Below, in pieces: positions 22,109 through 44,068 of a stretch of DNA of 45,154 nt. Under the pieces are notes generated by a model. It was not told where the DNA came from, ran no database searches, and saw only the letters and a list, made by a program, of their open reading frames with translations. Both the position numbers and the translations under genes were made by a program. Source of the DNA: Candidatus Vogelbacteria bacterium (GTDB lineage: Bacteria; Patescibacteriota; Minisyncoccia; Phycocordibacterales; UBA12445). The stretch lies in NCBI GenBank assembly GCA_016201465.1, contig JACQCV010000022.1, positions 1 through 45,154 on the forward strand, written 5' to 3'. Positions within the stretch are counted from its first letter, which is position 1, and every line of letters starts with the position of its first letter.

Positions 22109-22109
22109 T

Positions 22110-22369
22110 AAAATAAGCCTTTTCTCACCAACCCATTGACAAAACATATAATAGTATGCTATACTTTCGCTAGATAAAAACAATAAAAAGCTAGCTCTTC
22201 ACATCAAATAAAAGTTCAAAAACCTTGATGCGCATCCCAACGTGGAGGCATCATATACCTCGATTAAATTCGAGGGGAAGGAGCTGTCATCATGACGGTA
22301 CATGAGACTGTCGCCGACGGCAAACTTGGGAACGAGGAGCTTGGTCAATTCACCCGCAAGGTGGACGAA
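22110..22369 (+). repeat. 260-bp direct repeat, left copy: promoter, ~125-nt leader and the first 26 codons of the 204-aa ORF
   Basis: Near-identical to 43808..44068. Differences are about 10 substitutions or indels, clustered just after the -10. Confidence 0.9.
22136..22165 (+). promoter_or_regulatory. Consensus promoter TTGACA, 18 nt spacer, TATACT
   Basis: TTGACA at 22136-22141 and TATACT at 22160-22165. Downstream leader hairpins are tgatgc...gcatca and cctcga-ttaaat-tcgagg, just before the SD GGAAGGAG. Confidence 0.6.
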
Positions 22370-22906
22370 ATCAAGCGACGCCTCAACGAAGGAACGATTA
22401 CCCTCTCTTGGGCACTGAATGAGCTTCAGCGCATCATCGAGGGTCGTCAGTCCGTGAGCGACCTGGTCATCGACTTCGACGCCACGCCCATGATTCCGTC
22501 GGGCTTGGAAATCCGAGAGTCCGACCAAATCGCATCCCGCTTCAAGGGCAAGTGGACCTTCAATGCGAAGGCACTCGCTCTCTACCTCTCCAAGAAGCAG
22601 AAACAGGGCAAGCTCATCAAGGGCCATGACCTCAAGGACGACCTCGACGGCGAGAAGGTCATGGGAGCACAGCTTCTCGACTTCTACCTGAAGAACCCGC
22701 ACCTCATCCCCGACGAATGGAAGGGGAAGGCCACGTTCTTCTGGGGAACCATCTACCGCGGCTCGTTCGGGGACCTCTGCGTCCGCTACCTGTACTGGAG
22801 TGGCAAGGCGTGGGACTCGGACTACAACTGGCTGGACAACAACTTCAACGATACGAACCCCGCGTTGCTCGCTAATCTCTTCATTTCTCCTCTGGCTTTT
22901 TGCTAG
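22292..22906 (+). CDS. Candidate DGR variable (target) protein; GC-rich 204-aa ORF with an Asn/Asp/Tyr/Trp-rich C-terminus
   Basis: Line 22401-22460 is 36/60 G+C. The C-terminus is FFWGTIYRGSFGDLCVRYLYWSGKAWDSDYNWLDNNFNDTNPALL. Position is next to avd and RT. The last ~12 codons (from ~22872) are AT-rich and are antisense to the avd 3' end. Confidence 0.5.
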   Translation: MTVHETVADGKLGNEELGQFTRKVDEIKRRLNEGTITLSWALNELQRIIEGRQSVSDLVIDFDATPMIPSGLEIRESDQIASRFKGKWTFNAKALALYLSKKQKQGKLIKGHDLKDDLDGEKVMGAQLLDFYLKNPHLIPDEWKGKATFFWGTIYRGSFGDLCVRYLYWSGKAWDSDYNWLDNNFNDTNPALLANLFISPLAFC

Positions 22907-23317
22907 GGGAGTTTTGTTTACTCTGGGCTATGTCGAGAGGCTTAACTTTAACCTCCTCAACCTTTCTTGTAACCTGCCCATTCCACCCTCCAAGCATCTT
23001 TCCTATCTCATTGAGTGGCATGGAAACAGCAATATATTTATTGTTATCTAAAGACTTTGTTTCCCAGAGGACCATGAGTAATATCTTTAATGTATCTGTC
23101 TTCCTAATAGCTATTCTAATCCAAGGTTGTTTCTCCTCTTTAGATAAGAAGCTGGCAATCGCTATAGATTCGATAATTTCTATGAATAAGGCATCAATTC
23201 TTTGTCCCAGAGAATGTCTATGGTCCTTAGGTAATACCTGGTAGTATCCATACCATAAGATATATACACTCTTAACCCTTTGTAGCAGGGGTAGAATCGG
23301 GGGGGGGGTAACTTCAT
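22881..23317 (-). CDS. avd: DGR accessory variability determinant (Avd, four-helix-bundle family), interrupted by a frameshift in a C10 tract
   Basis: Hand translation of the minus strand gives ATG(23317) AAG TTA C10. The long frame after the tract reads ILPLLQRVKSVYILWYGYYQVLPKDHRHSLGQRIDALFIEIIESIAIASFLSKEEKQPWIRIAIRKTDTLKILLMVLWETKSLDNNKYIAVSMPLNEIGKMLGGWNGQVTRK. This is Avd-like, including the EIGxxLGGW signature. The span is 437 nt, which is not a multiple of 3. C11 or C8 would restore a 145-aa ORF. Confidence 0.7.
23299..23308. repeat. G10/C10 homopolymer inside the avd 5' end, 22 nt upstream of the RT start codon
   Basis: cgg gggggggg ta, counted directly. It is the longest G/C run I saw in this AT-rich window. 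Confidence 0.95.
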
Positions 23318-23329
23318 GGTTTTATTTAT

Positions 23330-24343
23330 ATGACCAACAGAATCAAATTTATTCATAACTACGATACTATCATTTCTCTCGAAAATTTGCTTGAAGCCTG
23401 GAAAGAGTTTCGAAACAACAAAAAATCTCGAAAAGATGTCCAAGAATTTGAAAGAAACTTGATGGAGAATATATTATTGCTCCACAAAGAACTCCTAACA
23501 AAAACCTATAAACATTCTTCTTATGAAGCTTTTAACATTTCTGACCCTAAACCAAGGAGGATACACAAGGCGAAGGTCCGAGATAGACTACTTCACCACG
23601 CCATATACAGAAAACTGTATCCCTTCTTTGATAAGACATTTATAGCTGACTCTTACTCGTGTCGTTTCGAGAAGGGGACCCATAAGGCTTTAGAAAGATT
23701 TCATTCTTTTTCTCAAAAGGTTTCAGGTAATAGGACCAAAGCCGTCTGGGTTCTCAAGTGTGACATACGAAAATTCTTTGCTTCAATAGACCAAAGTATT
23801 CTCATCGGAATCGTTAAGGAGTATGTATCAGATCAAAATATCACCTGGCTTATTTCAGAAATCGTTTCTAGTTTTCATTCGACGAAGGAAGGCGTCGGCT
23901 TGCCCTTAGGGAATTTAACCTCCCAACTTCTCGTAAATGTATACATGAATAAATTTGACCAATTTATGAAGCATAGGGTTAAGGCCAAATATTACATTCG
24001 TTATGCCGACGACTTTGTGATTATGTCTCAAGATAGAAAGTGGCTTGAAGAAGTATTAATTAAAATCAAGAAGTTTCTACATGAGAAGCTTAAATTAGAA
24101 TTACATCCGAACAAAGTCTCAATCGAAACACTATCTTCGGGGGTAGATTTTCTTGGTTGGGTTAACTTTCCAGACCATAGAGTTATGAGAACAACGACTA
24201 AGAAGAGGATGTTTAGAAATATTAAGACTAGAGAAGGGAAGCCCGAGGTTGTTCAATCCTATCTTGGACTCTTGAGTCATGGAAATGGGAAGAGGTTGCA
24301 GGATGGGATAGCTAAATTAAATACACAAGTTGGTAATAAGTGA
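23330..24343 (+). CDS. Diversity-generating retroelement reverse transcriptase
   Basis: Motifs SLENLLEAWKEF, DPKPRRIHKAKVRDRLLHHAIY, SYSCRFEKGTHKAL, LKCDIRKFFASIDQ and FLGW. GLPLGNLTSQLLVNVYMN carries the DGR-specific [LI]GxxxSQ (LGNLTSQ at 23906-23926). YIRYADDFVI has YADD at 24002-24013. Confidence 0.9.
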   Translation: MTNRIKFIHNYDTIISLENLLEAWKEFRNNKKSRKDVQEFERNLMENILLLHKELLTKTYKHSSYEAFNISDPKPRRIHKAKVRDRLLHHAIYRKLYPFFDKTFIADSYSCRFEKGTHKALERFHSFSQKVSGNRTKAVWVLKCDIRKFFASIDQSILIGIVKEYVSDQNITWLISEIVSSFHSTKEGVGLPLGNLTSQLLVNVYMNKFDQFMKHRVKAKYYIRYADDFVIMSQDRKWLEEVLIKIKKFLHEKLKLELHPNKVSIETLSSGVDFLGWVNFPDHRVMRTTTKKRMFRNIKTREGKPEVVQSYLGLLSHGNGKRLQDGIAKLNTQVGNK

Positions 24344-24355
24344 TAGAATGACGGT

Positions 24356-24865
24356 ATGAAAAACCCAGAAAAATTTACCCCCTACATTAAAGAAGAAGCC
24401 AAGAAAATAATTGAAGAGGTTAAGGAAACATTAGCTAAGGACTTCGGTCTCACGGAATTTACCCAAGTTGAGTTTTTTGAACTTCAACACGCACTACAAG
24501 AAGTTATGGAAGTTTATCCTGTGAAGATAAAACCTGTAACAGCCCAAGAAAAGATAGAGTATGTCCACTCAAAAAGTGTTTTTGGTTCTACCAAACTTGA
24601 AGTCATTGACCGCTGGCTTAGCAGAACTCATCACGTGAGAATAATAGATGTTCCTGTCCGTTATGTATTAACCGACCAGAAGACAGATGAACAATTTATG
24701 TTTAATGGTAAAGACTGTTCTTCAGGAAACAATACCTTGAAACAAGCCTGGCAGAAAAAATTTGAACTTCAAAAACTTGGTCATAGTGGAGTCATTTCTG
24801 GAGGTATTACAGAAGAGTTTAAGGAGATGCTTAGAGAGGACTCCAAGAAAAGGGAGATTATTTAA
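24356..24865 (+). CDS. Hypothetical protein, 12 nt downstream of the RT stop
   Basis: 169-aa ORF. I recognise no family. Confidence 0.5.
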   Translation: MKNPEKFTPYIKEEAKKIIEEVKETLAKDFGLTEFTQVEFFELQHALQEVMEVYPVKIKPVTAQEKIEYVHSKSVFGSTKLEVIDRWLSRTHHVRIIDVPVRYVLTDQKTDEQFMFNGKDCSSGNNTLKQAWQKKFELQKLGHSGVISGGITEEFKEMLREDSKKREII

Positions 24866-26554: not shown

Positions 26555-26727
26555 CTAAACCACAGTGTTAATTAGGTTGGGGTAAAACGTCGGAATATAT
26601 ATTGTTGCATCATTCCTTCGCTCAAAAATAGTTCTAACATCCTCTACCACGGCACCCAGCGTTATTTTTCTTAAATAAATCGTTATCGTGTTTAGACTTT
26701 TTAGTTCTAACCTGGTAAGCTTTTGGT
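26555..26727. repeat. Inter-cassette repeat, copy 1 (~155 bp, runs up to the ATG of the cupin gene)
   Basis: 26574-26727 is almost identical to 27745-27898. The minus strand carries a 62-aa ORF (26555..26743) ending ...GAVVEDVRTIFERRNDATIYIPTFYPNLINTVV*. Confidence 0.85.
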
Positions 26728-27033
26728 ATGGAAAATTTATCAAACGATGCTGTAAGTATAGCTCCCCATTTACACAAGGTTATATTGGAAAATGATAAGG
26801 TTCGTGTACTTGATGTACTAGTTAAACCTGGGGACAAAGCAGAGATGCACACTCATCCCGCTAACGTCGGAATCGTTACACAAGCAGGTACATTAAATAT
26901 TACTTTTGAAGATGGAACGAATAAAGAAGTTAAACTTGAAAAGGGAGCAATCAACTTTTCTGGCCCCAACAAACATATGGTTGAAAATAAAGGGACAGAG
27001 GAGGTGCGAGTTATACAGGTGGAGTTAAAATAA
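26728..27033 (+). CDS. Cupin-domain protein
   Basis: GDKAEMHTHPANVGIVTQAG...FSGPNKHMVENKGTEEVRVIQVE shows cupin_2-type motifs. Confidence 0.7.
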   Translation: MENLSNDAVSIAPHLHKVILENDKVRVLDVLVKPGDKAEMHTHPANVGIVTQAGTLNITFEDGTNKEVKLEKGAINFSGPNKHMVENKGTEEVRVIQVELK

Positions 27034-27725: not shown

Positions 27726-27898
27726 CTAAACAATAGCGTATTGCAGGGTGGGGTAAAACGTCGGAATATATATTGTTGCATCATTCCTTCGCTCAAAAAT
27801 AGTTCTAACATCCTCTACCACGGCACCCAGCGTTATTTTTCTTAAATAAATCGTTATCGTGTTTAGACTTTTTAGTTCTAACCTGATAGACTTTTCGT
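27726..27898. repeat. Inter-cassette repeat, copy 2 (runs up to the ATG of the methyltransferase gene)
   Basis: See copy 1. The minus-strand tail reads ...FYPTLQYAIV*, with its stop at 27726-27728. That is the same offset (26 nt before GGTAAAA) as in copies 1 and 3. Confidence 0.85.
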
Positions 27899-28729
27899 AT
27901 GAAAGATTATAAGTACGACAAAATCACTCCAACTGCAGATTTGATTTCCTACTTCAGGACTTTTTCTGATATTCCGTACACTAAAGAGATTGCCGAAATC
28001 ACGGGTGCTGAAGAAATAGCGAGGAAGATTTTAGGCGAACATTTCAAAGATAGTATGTTTCTAGCTCCGATATCAGAAGTGCGCTATAAGAGGATAGATA
28101 TTCAAGCACAAAAATATAAAAACATTCTTGAGGTGGCTGTCGGGCGTTCCCCAAGAGATTTAATTTTTACAGAAAACCCAGAAATCAGTTATGTCGCAAC
28201 AGATTTATCAGATTCACTTAATAATCACGAAACGATTATTAAAGAGTTAATGGCTAGACATAAACTCAAAAGACCAAATTTATATTTTGCATCAGTCAAT
28301 GCGTTAGAGAGTGTGGATTTCAATAAAGCATCTGATTTATTACCAGAAGGTCCTGTCGCAATAATCTCAGAAGGTTTTATGGTTTATTTATCCAAGGAAG
28401 AGAAACAGATATTTCTGAAAAATGTTTTAGAAATCCTTATTAAAAGAGGAGGATGTTTGATAACCTCGGATATTAATTTTACAAAAAGAAGTAATATTGC
28501 AGCTGGTATTATGGATTCAATTTCCTCTACTGCTGGTAGAGATATGAGAGATTTGAGTTTTGATAATGCTGAGGACGCTAAAAACTTTCTATCTGAAGCG
28601 GGCTTTGATTCAGAGATTGTTTCCGACCCAATTGACGTGGTTTCTGTTAAAGAACTGAAATTAGAAAATGACCCTCAGACAGAGCGAGTTATGAGTTTTC
28701 CAGTCTGGGTCCTTACACCTAGGAAATAG
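27899..28729 (+). CDS. Class I SAM-dependent methyltransferase (leucine carboxyl/O-methyltransferase-like)
   Basis: ILEVAVGRSPRDL, VATDLSD and ISEGFMVYLSKEE indicate a Rossmann methyltransferase pattern. Confidence 0.6.
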   Translation: MKDYKYDKITPTADLISYFRTFSDIPYTKEIAEITGAEEIARKILGEHFKDSMFLAPISEVRYKRIDIQAQKYKNILEVAVGRSPRDLIFTENPEISYVATDLSDSLNNHETIIKELMARHKLKRPNLYFASVNALESVDFNKASDLLPEGPVAIISEGFMVYLSKEEKQIFLKNVLEILIKRGGCLITSDINFTKRSNIAAGIMDSISSTAGRDMRDLSFDNAEDAKNFLSEAGFDSEIVSDPIDVVSVKELKLENDPQTERVMSFPVWVLTPRK

Positions 28730-28811
28730 TGAATTGTGGGGTAGGGTAAAAGGCAGGAATATAGATTGTCGCATCATTTCTTCTCTCAAAAATAGTTCTG
28801 ATATCCTCTAC
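28719..28811. repeat. Inter-cassette repeat, copy 3 (diverged, partial)
   Basis: It aligns to copies 1 and 2 over ~70 nt with 9 substitutions. On the minus strand it translates as GAVVEDIRTIFERRNDATIYIPAFYPTPQFTIS*. Confidence 0.8.
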
Positions 28812-28901
28812 CACGGCACCCTAGTAGGAATTTTGCTCAATATGTCAATCATGATAACAATTTTAATCATTTTAGCAACCCAATATTAGAAAAAGTATAC
28901 A

Positions 28902-38835: not shown

Positions 38836-41751
38836 ATGAAAAATTTTACTTGGAGAATTTTTTTTGCTACTTCCATTTTGTCGGTTGTTTCAGTATATGC
38901 GGTGGCTTATGCGACTTACGCCTCCACCACCATCGACTCAAACATCAACACGGGAGGTACTCTTGATGTTACTGGTGCTGTAACTCTAGGTAGCGCTACT
39001 TCCACAGCCTCCAATGGGTGGAATATCTCTGCTGGCTGTTTTGCTATTAATGGTATATGTGAGGGGACGGGGACCGTAACATCAGTCAGTGGCTCAGGTG
39101 GAACAACAGGTTTAACACTAACCGGTGGAGCCATAACCACCTCAGGAACTCTAACTCTTGGAGGCACACTAGCACAAGCTAATGGTGGCACTGGTGCATC
39201 AAGCTTCGGTATTCCTTTTTACACATTCTTTAATGCGACCACTACGGACGCATTAACTCAGGGTTCTTCTAACAAATATTACTCGACTCTTCTTTTTGCC
39301 ACTGATTTAGCGGGTACGACAACTGATGCCCTAGCTGGGGGTTCTACAAACAAATATTTCTCTAATTCACTGGTCGGTGCGTATATCTCAGGTTCGACCA
39401 CCGTCCCTCACATCGGTGGTGATGCCTATGGAGGTAACGATATGCTTGTCTGGAATGGTTCCGCTTGGACGGTGGTGGCGACTTCGACGTTGGGGATTAG
39501 TGGATCGTCACAGTGGATAACCAGTGGATCAGACATTTATTACATAACTGGAAAAGTGGGGATTGGGAATACAGGTCCCACAGAGGCTCTCGACGTGGCA
39601 GGTAATGCAAATATAACGGGAGTATATAAAATTAATAATGCTACTATATTACAGGCAGACGGTAACATTGGTACCAATGGCGCTAATATTGCCTTAGGCT
39701 ATTTAAGTGGTTCCGCTGGCACTTGGGATGCAGGAATTACATCTCTTGGGTCTGAGGCTGGTAATCACACATATGATGGCTATCAGTGGCAAGACACGTA
39801 TGTTGGAGCATTTGCTGGTCAGAATAATTCTGGTCATTATCGAACTGGCAATACCTTTATCGGTCATTCGGCGGGAAAGGATTCTACGGGGGGCCAGAAT
39901 AACAGTTTCCTTGGCTTATCAGCAGGGCAGAGTATTACAGGATCGAATAATACATTTCTTGGTACAAATGCTGGCTATACCGACGGAAGCGTCGTGAGTG
40001 ATATAACGGTAACCAATGCTACTGCGGTCGGCTATAACGCGGAAGTCACCCGAAGCAATTCGCTTATTCTTGGTGGTACTGGAGCTTACGCCGTAAATGT
40101 CGGCATCGGCACCACATCTCCATCAGCTGAGCTTGCAGTAACTGGAGGTCTTTTTACTACCGCTTCCTCCACAATGATGAATGGCATTGATCTTACTGGT
40201 GGTTGTTTTTCTGTTAACGGAACTTGTATAACAGCAGGGACCGGACCACAAGGTCCAGCAGGTTCTAGCCAGTGGGCAGATGGTGTAGGTGGTGTGATTT
40301 CTTATATTGCCGGAGATGTAGGTATTGGAACCACTAATCCGACTGCGTTGCTTGACGTCAACGGTCTTGCCTCAACTACCAATCTAACTATCTCTGCCCT
40401 CGGTACACCAGCAGGCACATTCCTTGCGGTTGATCCTATGGGAAATGTTATTGCGACCACGACGCCATCGGGGGGGGGAGTGACTGGTTCTGGAAACTCG
40501 GGCCAAGTTACCTACTGGAACGGCACAGGTTCAGTGGCTAGTAGTGCAGGATTTCTTTTTTCTGCACCAGCGGCTGGTGCGATCTTAACTCTCGGTGACA
40601 ACTCTAGCACTGGTGGCAACATGAGTATAACCCCGGGTACTGGATCAGGAAACACATTTAGTGGTCACAGTAATCTCCTTATTGGGACAAACAATACAGC
40701 AGACAATACTAGTCTTGCTGTCGGATCAGGAAATAATGCTGGTAATAACTATGACGTACTCTTTGGAGAGAATAATTCTACTCCTGGTTGTAACGATTGT
40801 TTTGCTTTTGGAAACAGTAACGCTGCAAGTGGTCAATACTCACTTCTCGCTGGTCAAAGTAACACAACTGCAAGTATAGACAACATGGCCTTTGGAAATA
40901 CAAACCTTGTGGCGGGTGCAGGAGCAATAGGTATCGGTTCGTTTACAAACACAAATGCGACCCAAGCCATAACAATTGGTAGCGGTGTGAATAATGGAAA
41001 TAAGCTAAGTAATATTATTGCAAACTCTCTAGCAATTGGATTTAATAGTACTGTTCCAACACTGACAGTGACAGCAAGTCCAGGTCCAGGAACTGATACC
41101 GTCGGTAATGTCGGCATCGGCACCACATCTCCATCAGCTGAGCTTGCAGTAACTGGAGGTCTTTTTACTACCGCTTCCTCCACAATGATGAATGGCATTA
41201 ATTTAACAGATGGCTGTTTTTCCATAAATGGTATGTGTATTTCCGGTGGCGGTGGCGGAAGTACTGCAGCTAGTTCAATAACCAGTGGGACGTTTGGTGC
41301 TGGTGATTACGTTTTTCCATCTATTCTGACTGTTAATGACAACATTTCTACTTCCTTTATTTCAGCAACATCAACAACGGCCACTTCAACTTTCTCTGGC
41401 AGTATTCAAGTTGGTGGGAGTGCAAGCACCACTCAATTAGTAGTTGGCGGTGTCGGTGGAACTACGGGGACTATAAATAAAATGTTGTTTGGAACATGCA
41501 CATTTACAGATGGGGTTGTGATGGCCGGTGCCACACAAAGAATAGAAACTTGTAAAAATGCAGACGCGTCAGATTTAGTGGGAGTAATACACGGGGATAT
41601 AATAATCGTTACACCAACGTCATTTGTTAATCATGTTGTCATGGGCTCTGCTTCGTCAACAGTCGATGGATCGATTTCGATAGCTCTTGATGCTGGTGGA
41701 GCACCTGTAACTCCCGGAACCGCCGTGTTTAGTTGGATAGATTTGAAATAG
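38836..41751 (+). CDS. 971-aa tail-fibre-like, Gly/Thr/Ser/Asn-rich surface protein with an N-terminal anchor
   Basis: N-terminal TM FFATSILSVVSVYAVAYA. Tail-fibre-type motifs: ANGGTGASSFG, GKVGIGNTGPTEALDVAGN and VNVGIGTTSPSAELAVTGG (twice). These motifs are shared with the N-terminal part of the giant protein. Confidence 0.8.
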   Translation: MKNFTWRIFFATSILSVVSVYAVAYATYASTTIDSNINTGGTLDVTGAVTLGSATSTASNGWNISAGCFAINGICEGTGTVTSVSGSGGTTGLTLTGGAITTSGTLTLGGTLAQANGGTGASSFGIPFYTFFNATTTDALTQGSSNKYYSTLLFATDLAGTTTDALAGGSTNKYFSNSLVGAYISGSTTVPHIGGDAYGGNDMLVWNGSAWTVVATSTLGISGSSQWITSGSDIYYITGKVGIGNTGPTEALDVAGNANITGVYKINNATILQADGNIGTNGANIALGYLSGSAGTWDAGITSLGSEAGNHTYDGYQWQDTYVGAFAGQNNSGHYRTGNTFIGHSAGKDSTGGQNNSFLGLSAGQSITGSNNTFLGTNAGYTDGSVVSDITVTNATAVGYNAEVTRSNSLILGGTGAYAVNVGIGTTSPSAELAVTGGLFTTASSTMMNGIDLTGGCFSVNGTCITAGTGPQGPAGSSQWADGVGGVISYIAGDVGIGTTNPTALLDVNGLASTTNLTISALGTPAGTFLAVDPMGNVIATTTPSGGGVTGSGNSGQVTYWNGTGSVASSAGFLFSAPAAGAILTLGDNSSTGGNMSITPGTGSGNTFSGHSNLLIGTNNTADNTSLAVGSGNNAGNNYDVLFGENNSTPGCNDCFAFGNSNAASGQYSLLAGQSNTTASIDNMAFGNTNLVAGAGAIGIGSFTNTNATQAITIGSGVNNGNKLSNIIANSLAIGFNSTVPTLTVTASPGPGTDTVGNVGIGTTSPSAELAVTGGLFTTASSTMMNGINLTDGCFSINGMCISGGGGGSTAASSITSGTFGAGDYVFPSILTVNDNISTSFISATSTTATSTFSGSIQVGGSASTTQLVVGGVGGTTGTINKMLFGTCTFTDGVVMAGATQRIETCKNADASDLVGVIHGDIIIVTPTSFVNHVVMGSASSTVDGSISIALDAGGAPVTPGTAVFSWIDLK
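40096..40198 (+). repeat. 103-bp exact intragenic direct repeat, copy 1 (partner at 41107..41209)
   Basis: aatgtcggcatcggcaccacatctccatcagctgagcttgcagtaactggaggtc...gaatggcatt reads identically at both sites. Confidence 0.85.
40470..40478 (+). repeat. G9 homopolymer inside the tail-fibre-like gene (codons S-G-G-G)
   Basis: catcG GGGGGGGG agtg, counted directly. Confidence 0.95.
41107..41209 (+). repeat. 103-bp exact intragenic direct repeat, copy 2
   Basis: See copy 1. Both copies encode NVGIGTTSPSAELAVTGGLFTTASSTMMNGI. Confidence 0.85.
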
Positions 41752-43795: not shown

Positions 43796-43807
43796 AAGGT
43801 ATCTTGT

Positions 43808-44068
43808 AAAATAAGCCTTTTCTCACCAACCCATTGACAAAACATCTAATAGTATTCTATACTCTGTTCAGATAAAAATAATAAAAAGCTAGCTCTTCAC
43901 ATCAAATAAAAGTTCAAAAAACCTTGATGCGCATCCCAACGTGGAGGCATCATATACCTCGATTAAATTCGAGGGGAAGGAGCTGTCACCATGACGGTAC
44001 ATGAGACTGTCGCCGACGGCAAACTTGGGAACGAGGAGCTTGGTCAATTCACCCGCAAGGTGGACGAA
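43808..44068 (+). repeat. 260-bp direct repeat, right copy
   Basis: See the left copy at 22110..22369. Confidence 0.9.
43834..43863 (+). promoter_or_regulatory. Second copy of the TTGACA, 18 nt spacer, TATACT promoter
   Basis: TTGACA at 43834-43839 and TATACT at 43858-43863. Confidence 0.55.

Follow-up and report, generated by a model that had tools for sequence, protein, structure and literature searches.

A conserved simple repeat in the 5' coding region of avd as a putative slipped-strand switch of DGRs in CPR bacteria

Introduction

Simple-repeat contingency loci are known from Campylobacter jejuni, with poly-G tracts of 8-13, from Haemophilus influenzae, with tetranucleotide repeats (lic1, mod), and from Neisseria (review PMC11868660). 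The locus described here is like them in having a non-triplet repeat near the 5' end of a coding sequence, with G/C homopolymers of 8-12 in an AT-rich genome. It also shares with them length alleles between near-identical strains and, in some lineages, starts in several frames, as at lic1. It is unlike them in the gene that would be switched, namely a cofactor of a targeted mutagenesis machine rather than a surface or restriction-modification gene. A literature search found no simple-repeat contingency loci reported for CPR bacteria.

Repeats of a second kind are shared between genes or lie in promoter regions, such as the (TA)n repeat of hifA/hifB in H. influenzae and the poly-G/C tracts of porA and opc in N. 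meningitidis. As in those systems, our locus has one repeat between divergent genes and beside a -10-like box; here, however, the repeat lies inside one of the coding sequences, and for the putative promoter role a test of spacing was negative. Homopolymer slippage or frameshifting is also familiar from Thermus dnaX, IS elements, Shigella mxiE and the poly-A runs of Buchnera. These cases resemble ours in the long homopolymer between the start codon and the main frame, but they have one fixed frame relation and mostly A/T runs, whereas the loci studied here show all three frames and substitute repeat types.

In the Bordetella phage system, Avd is required for retrohoming, and to our knowledge the avd of phage BPP-1 is expressed without any known stochastic switch. 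The BPP-1 DGR (mtd-avd-TR-brt) and the present one have in common a DGR-type reverse transcriptase (RT), a probable Avd-family helper and, in relatives of our locus, adenine-specific differences between TR and VR. The BPP-1 avd is co-directional, whereas the avd of our locus points away from RT, with the two starts overlapping head to head, and contains a hypermutable repeat. According to Wu et al. 2018 (PMC5758913), architecture B3, 'TR-(avd)-RT', makes up 90% of the CPR DGR set, and a text search of the paper gave no mention of a repeat in avd. The B3 cassette comprises a target gene with VR, TR, a reverse-strand avd and RT, in an order shared by nearly all relatives of our locus. TR/VR mismatches in these relatives are A-to-N only; the window has one TR/VR-like copy.

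Little is known about how DGR mutagenesis is regulated, and unchecked diversification carries a cost for a receptor that already works. A full-text literature search whose scope excludes Paul et al. 2017 and one 2026 preprint turned up neither a repeat in avd nor a phase-variable DGR. Here we describe a homopolymer at the start of an avd gene, its counterparts in related loci and the readings that these comparisons support.

Results

The DGR cassette of the window

The window, by which we mean the whole stretch of 45,154 nucleotides that was analysed, has the B3 gene order TR-(avd)-RT. The RT, of 337 aa, is encoded on the + strand at 23330..24343. It matches RVT_1 with an E-value of 7e-25 and has both the [LIV]GxxxSQ motif and the YxDD of the DGR clade, present as LGNLTSQ at residue 194 and YADD at residue 225. 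Its best match among solved structures is 8ub7_A (E 1e-45), which we take to be bRT, the Bordetella phage RT, and which comes ahead of group II intron and retron RTs.

The avd body lies on the - strand at 22881..23298 as 138 open codons plus stop. When one C is added to the tract described below, the product matches Pfam bAvd PF22296 with 39.9 bits (cut-off 40) over profile positions 5-104 of 107, and NCBIfam NF033474 DivGenRetAVD with a score of 60 (cut-off 80; E 2e-16) over positions 1-102 of 104. Both Avd profiles are matched over their full length, with scores under the curated cut-offs. A comparison of the Avd profile with PDB sequences gave chance hits only. The synteny of avd and RT is the same as in more than 150 relatives, and the divergent layout is found in all close relatives.

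A TR/VR pair differing at adenines was not found in the window with a repeat finder, an adenine-tolerant scan, low-stringency blastn or a whole-window self-comparison. A single TR/VR-like repeat occupies 22757..22880 (+), in the TR position beside the avd 3' end. Set against the closest TR, that of locus L001, it is TR-like in its 3' part and tail, and in its 5' part AAC codons are changed in the manner of a VR. In the target-gene homologue (22292..22906, +; 204 aa), homology to the corresponding genes of relatives extends over residues 42-193, and the ORF ends in a tail, …LANLFISPLAFC, of the type that only TR copies have. In relatives VR ends the target gene and TR lies 300-470 nt further on, beside the avd 3' end; in L021 and L002, for example, the two differ by A-to-N changes only. 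The single hybrid copy in the window reflects either a real recombination or deletion between VR and TR, by which target gene and template became one, or a jump of the assembler from a hypervariable VR to the invariant TR. Since there is no separate VR/TR pair as assembled, gating of mutagenesis may be moot in the window itself.

Directly after TR there is a terminator-like hairpin, CTCCTCTGGCTTTTTGCTAGGGGAG followed by TTTTGTTT (22887..22921, +), whose opposite strand includes the final codons of avd. L001 and L002 keep the hairpin, with a G-U or compensatory change. The hairpin and the T run after it suggest that the TR RNA is a short separate transcript.

Several further repeats were seen in and around these genes. 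A 262-nt direct repeat, 96% identical between 22109-22369 and 43807-44068, takes in the first 26 target-gene codons together with the region upstream of them. Its copy at 43807-44068 runs on into unrelated sequence, and a truncated paralogue, a scar of rearrangement or a join made in assembly could each account for the repeat. A family of direct repeats, 92-85% identical, lies upstream of three small genes (26555-26737, 27726-27908 and 28725-28821). Among the related contigs, L086, L090, L091 and L093 show 6-17 clustered differences in a 70-nt patch of the target gene (locus positions 267-340); this variable patch has no similarity to TR, and the RT, TR and VR of these contigs are identical.

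A G10 run separates the avd start from its reading frame

The initial annotation had placed a G10 run at 23299-23308, 22 nt upstream of the RT start, and had read it as an interruption of avd; the sequence agrees with this description in every detail. On the + strand the run is bounded by C at 23298 and T at 23309, and its last G is 22 nt from the RT ATG, the A of which is at 23330. On the - strand avd opens with ATG (23317-23315), AAG and TTA, followed by C10 and then GATTCTACC. The frame of this ATG meets a stop after 45 codons and ends at 23180-23182. The Avd-like frame on the same strand is open from the tract down to its stop at 22881-22883. The two frames are joined only with C11 or C8, as had been stated, or with C14, which also fits. 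From the ATG to the stop (23317-22881) the distance is 437 nt, which is not a multiple of three. A TAA closes the Avd frame four codons upstream of the tract, and the first ATG, GTG or TTG to follow it in that frame is the Met codon of the 64-aa ORF 22881-23075. The run had also been called a strong outlier for this genome, and the composition of the window bears this out: at a G+C of 41.5%, the expected number of G runs of at least 10 is 0.02.

A second ATG on the avd strand, at 23356-23354, shares its frame with ATG 23317, overlaps RT codons 1-9 in antisense and is probably the real avd start. The start region with both ATGs (23309..23356, -) reads MNKFDSVGHINKTMKL..., and in relatives that lack the tract the equivalent ATG leads straight into Avd. 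A C11 version would give an Avd of 158 aa from ATG 23356, predicted to begin MNKFDSVGHINKTMKLPPPPILPLLQ, or of 145 aa from ATG 23317. As read in avd, the tract encodes Pro-Pro-Pro within the first ~20 codons.

The two genes overlap head to head at 23330-23356, and many relatives have the same arrangement. On opposite strands, the upstream avd ATG pairs with a His codon of the RT N-terminus (IKFIH), just as the RT ATG pairs with a His codon of avd. The sole other long run in the window is a G9 at 40470-40478, which keeps the frame of the 971-aa ORF around it (38836-41751), an ORF without a Pfam match that contains a 134-nt internal repeat (40096-40229 and 41107-41240, 90% identical); this ORF may be another slippage-prone gene.

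The repeat is conserved among relatives

Scans of one genome per species and of metagenome contigs with the window RT gave 160 loci, mostly from CPR bacteria, with RT identities of 59-71%. Exact-protein look-ups added five closer loci, and ~158 loci could be assessed upstream of RT; overall, RT identities range from 60 to 84%. The closest relative overall, from a protein search, has 84% RT identity. An exact-protein look-up of the window RT gave no other contig, and the genome and metagenome scans gave nothing closer than 70% identity. Hence the collections searched have no second contig of the window's lineage and no allele of its own lineage with which to compare it.

The comparison of orthologous loci that the initial annotation had proposed was carried out on this set. 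A G run of at least 6 is present within 110 nt upstream of the RT ATG in 132 of the ~158 loci. In 126 the run has at least 8 residues, with G8 in 16, G9 in 38, G10 in 40, G11 in 21 and G12-14 in 11 (mode 9-10), and it lies at the same spot as in the window. The G10 of the window is thus the local copy of a simple repeat found across the clade. The homopolymer is always G on the RT strand. Eight other loci have an alternative non-triplet repeat in the same place, read on the avd strand as (CCAG)n, (CCAA)n, (AGCAATC)n, (CA)n, (AG)n or (GA)n and on the RT strand as CTGG (three loci), TTGG, TGATTGC, GT, CT and TC. The repeat periods in relatives are therefore 1, 2, 4 and 7, none of them a multiple of three.

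In 749 kb of flanking DNA there are 7 G/C runs of at least 8, and set against this background the repeat is kept at its site far above chance. Some 60 DGR loci from viral contigs with RT identities of up to 48% showed no homopolymer upstream of RT; one viral-contig locus with 58% RT identity has G11. The tract occurs in short-read MAGs, in a single-cell genome and in other assemblies, and is hence not an artefact of one platform.

The repeat lies within the coding sequence and scrambles its frame

An (I/L)LPLLQ motif follows the repeat in avd, most often 4-6 nt away and at 1-9 nt in 71 of 85 loci. The ILPLLQ codons vary synonymously between loci, which indicates that the region is translated. 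A start codon downstream of the tract was considered and rejected: only ~1-6 nt precede the ILP codons, and these are often CTT/TTA.

We then compared the reading frames of loci with and without the tract. Thirteen of the 17 tract-less loci are in frame from an upstream ATG, GTG or TTG, as against 40 of 124 tract-bearing loci (Fisher p = 0.0008). The tract-bearing set comprises loci with a C run of at least 7, and an ATG in some frame is present in 123 of the 124; with a narrower scan of 30 nt upstream, ~15 loci had appeared to be without a canonical start. Upstream ATGs occur in frames 0, 1 and 2 in 40, 59 and 51 of the 124 loci, so that no fixed frame relation exists across orthologues, and the in-frame fraction of the tract-bearing loci (32-40%) equals chance. 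Most tract-less loci start at the ATG antisense to the conserved RT N-terminal His codon and read through short Pro-rich remnants such as EIPPVRILPVL; the P0068 lineage, which has no tract, carries a continuous 134-aa avd overlapping the RT start. Six of the eight loci with alternative repeats read from an ATG through the repeat into Avd. Taken together, the tract-less loci in frame and the tract-bearing loci at chance show that the frame matters, being kept without the repeat and scrambled with it.

A frame at chance relative to the upstream ATGs in 124 loci, in genes that stay intact when OFF, would also be expected if the shift were made good at the RNA level. Polymerase slippage, or ribosomal +1/-1 slippage on tRNA-Pro, would then give in-frame Avd at any tract length, and the tract would act as an attenuator. 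Transcriptional slippage does occur at long homopolymers, and CCC-C is classic for +1 frameshifting. The di-, tetra- and heptanucleotide repeats of eight loci, however, cannot be bypassed by slippage, and, unlike at programmed frameshifts, the shift required does not have one direction at all loci. Furthermore, the tract-less loci are mostly in frame, which means that the DNA frame matters where there is no repeat. We therefore regard recoding as unlikely.

The frameshift in the window and its lack of a separate VR/TR pair might instead point to an avd pseudogene in a decaying DGR. The state of the genes makes this scarcely tenable. The window avd retains its 138 Avd codons without any other lesion, and in comparison with L002 it has pN 0.17 and pS 0.69, a dN/dS of ~0.1; the RT is intact. 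The same single lesion, always at the repeat, is found without further damage in 76 other loci. All 76 of these OFF loci keep 108-138 open Avd codons, like the 35 ON loci, and none has a second lesion.

Tract length differs between near-identical contigs

Among contigs from different samples with one and the same RT protein, the tract varies in length and the flanks are nearly constant, in most cases with 0-1 differences per 1.3 kb. The widest series comes from P0089, with three contigs at G8, two at G9, one at G10, three at G11 and one at G12 or more; between most pairs the flanks show 0-1 differences in 1,320 nt, and the extremes, 8-11 differences, are pairs with L253, L258 or L252. In P0033 there are three G9 contigs and one G10 contig without any flank difference; C9 is predicted to be OFF and C10 to give 135 aa. 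In P0069 eight G10 contigs and two G11 contigs have one flank difference; here C10 is predicted to give 132 aa and C11 to be OFF. L024 and L109 have G11 and G8, respectively, with flanks 99.75% identical. The (CCAG)n repeat of three related contigs varies likewise, with 10.25 copies predicted to be ON, 9.25 copies ON from another ATG and 11.25 copies OFF. The VRs of the ON and OFF contigs of P0069 are identical, so that this comparison is uninformative on gating.

In P0089 the alleles C8, C9 and C11 read into Avd from different ATGs; the C10 and C12 contigs are without avd sequence. Because some lineages, P0089 among them, have ATGs in all three frames, a change in the repeat there alters the start that is used and does not turn avd OFF. 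The repeat of P0089 is hence a rheostat rather than a strict ON/OFF switch. In the P0089 contigs L249-L255 the three ATGs, in three frames, lie upstream of the tract and C8, C9 and C11 give different N-terminal leaders; on checking by hand, C10 would also read into Avd.

Contigs break at the tract more often than expected. In 18 loci a contig end lies within 70 nt of the RT start, and L256-L258 begin in or at the tract. These breaks fit mixed tract lengths within samples and, equally, sequencing difficulty. Two further contigs, L059 and L061, stop within the tract or at its edge. In L005, ATGAAGT leads directly into a terminal run of at least 27 G that has the look of an artefact of sequencing or assembly.

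At G10-G14 the consensus length from Illumina reads may be wrong by one, and these data bear on whether the G10 of the window is itself a homopolymer miscall or assembly error, the real allele being C11 and avd intact. The window contig is metagenome-assembled, G runs of at least 10 are error-prone, contigs often break at the tract and there is no second contig of the same lineage for comparison. What such an error fails to explain is the pattern across the family: independent assemblies agree on G8 (three times), G9 (twice) and G11 (three times), up to 4 nt apart, and where tetra- and heptanucleotide repeats occupy this site their copy number is variable too. Nor does the window show any other sign of indels, its long ORFs being intact and its G9 run in frame. 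The initial annotation had held a switch and an assembly error to be equally plausible. The comparative data shift that balance strongly towards the switch; a one-base error in the window's own contig stays as a rival, which we judge rather unlikely. The window contig thus has either an OFF allele or a one-base assembly error.

The tract adjoins a candidate RT promoter element

Directly after the tract, at 23309..23314 on the + strand, stands TAACTT, a -10-like hexamer (TAnnnT) and by its sequence a candidate RT promoter element. Across loci the bases after the tract on the + strand are T (74%), A (51%) and, five bases on, T (56%), and TAnnnT adjoins the tract in 46 of 117 loci. From the tract end to the RT ATG the modal distance is 13 nt, that is the hexamer plus seven bases, with a range of 4-52 nt. 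The terminator-like hairpin after TR makes it probable that RT is transcribed from a promoter of its own at the tract.

About half of the genes in the window have a strong AAGGAGG ribosome-binding site. Several others have a -10-like box 6-7 nt before the start and no Shine-Dalgarno sequence; the start at 24356, for instance, reads TGATAGAAT-GACGGT-ATG. The starts considered include those at 24356, 30779, 6552 and 42086. Boxes so close to the start suggest leaderless mRNAs.

From this side, the tract could be mainly a cis element of the RT promoter, serving the -10 box as a spacer or as the flank upstream of it, with no more than an incidental effect on avd. The frequent hexamer, the modal distance to the RT ATG, the leaderless-type boxes common in the window and the need of RT for a nearby promoter downstream of the hairpin all fit this proposal. 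The repeat is, however, tied more closely to the ILP codons of avd than to the RT ATG, as the two ranges of distance given above show. The alternative repeats have no following hexamer, and one is without any G. A consensus scan found no promoter at the tract and no convincing -35 box, and tract length is not compensated by the adjoining linker (Spearman -0.18, p = 0.13). A role chiefly in the promoter is on these grounds very unlikely. As a secondary role, the tract may influence RT transcription.

Discussion

From these sequence comparisons we consider it probable that this conserved tract, within the 5' coding region of avd, works as a slipped-strand contingency switch of a CPR DGR, with the window carrying an OFF allele. 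The proposal of a phase-variable switch on a DGR accessory protein, made in the initial annotation from the window alone, is supported by a repeat that is conserved, by contigs that differ in its length only and by OFF genes that are otherwise undamaged.

In the model we favour, replication slippage would alter the length of the repeat and so bring the Avd body into or out of frame with the upstream ATG. If Avd is needed together with RT for mutagenic cDNA synthesis, lineages would flip stochastically between a mutagenesis-competent and a silent state. The C10 of the window would be the OFF allele and C11 the ON allele. As the run lies directly upstream of the -10-like hexamer, its length might also tune RT transcription. 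We infer that switching is frequent and reversible; OFF alleles would make no Avd, and DGR activity would follow the switch.

A broader reading is that a hypermutable repeat common to the head-to-head avd and RT genes of a large CPR clade forms a heritable, stochastic gate on targeted hypermutation. Populations would then at all times be mixtures of mutating and frozen lineages, and loss of the repeat would lock a lineage ON. On this wider claim we find the case evenly poised.

DGRs, the B3 layout and phase variation by simple repeats were all known already; their combination, a conserved hypermutable repeat that would gate a DGR cofactor, did not come up in the literature search. The repeat explains why avd is often uncalled or truncated in CPR genomes and why contigs break at this site. 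DGR pipelines that require an intact avd will under-call these elements.

If the model is true, two classic routes to localized hypermutation, simple repeats and retroelement mutagenesis, are joined in one cassette. A slippage switch in an obligatory cofactor would then be a form of bet-hedging, in which new variants of the receptor are set against the current one.
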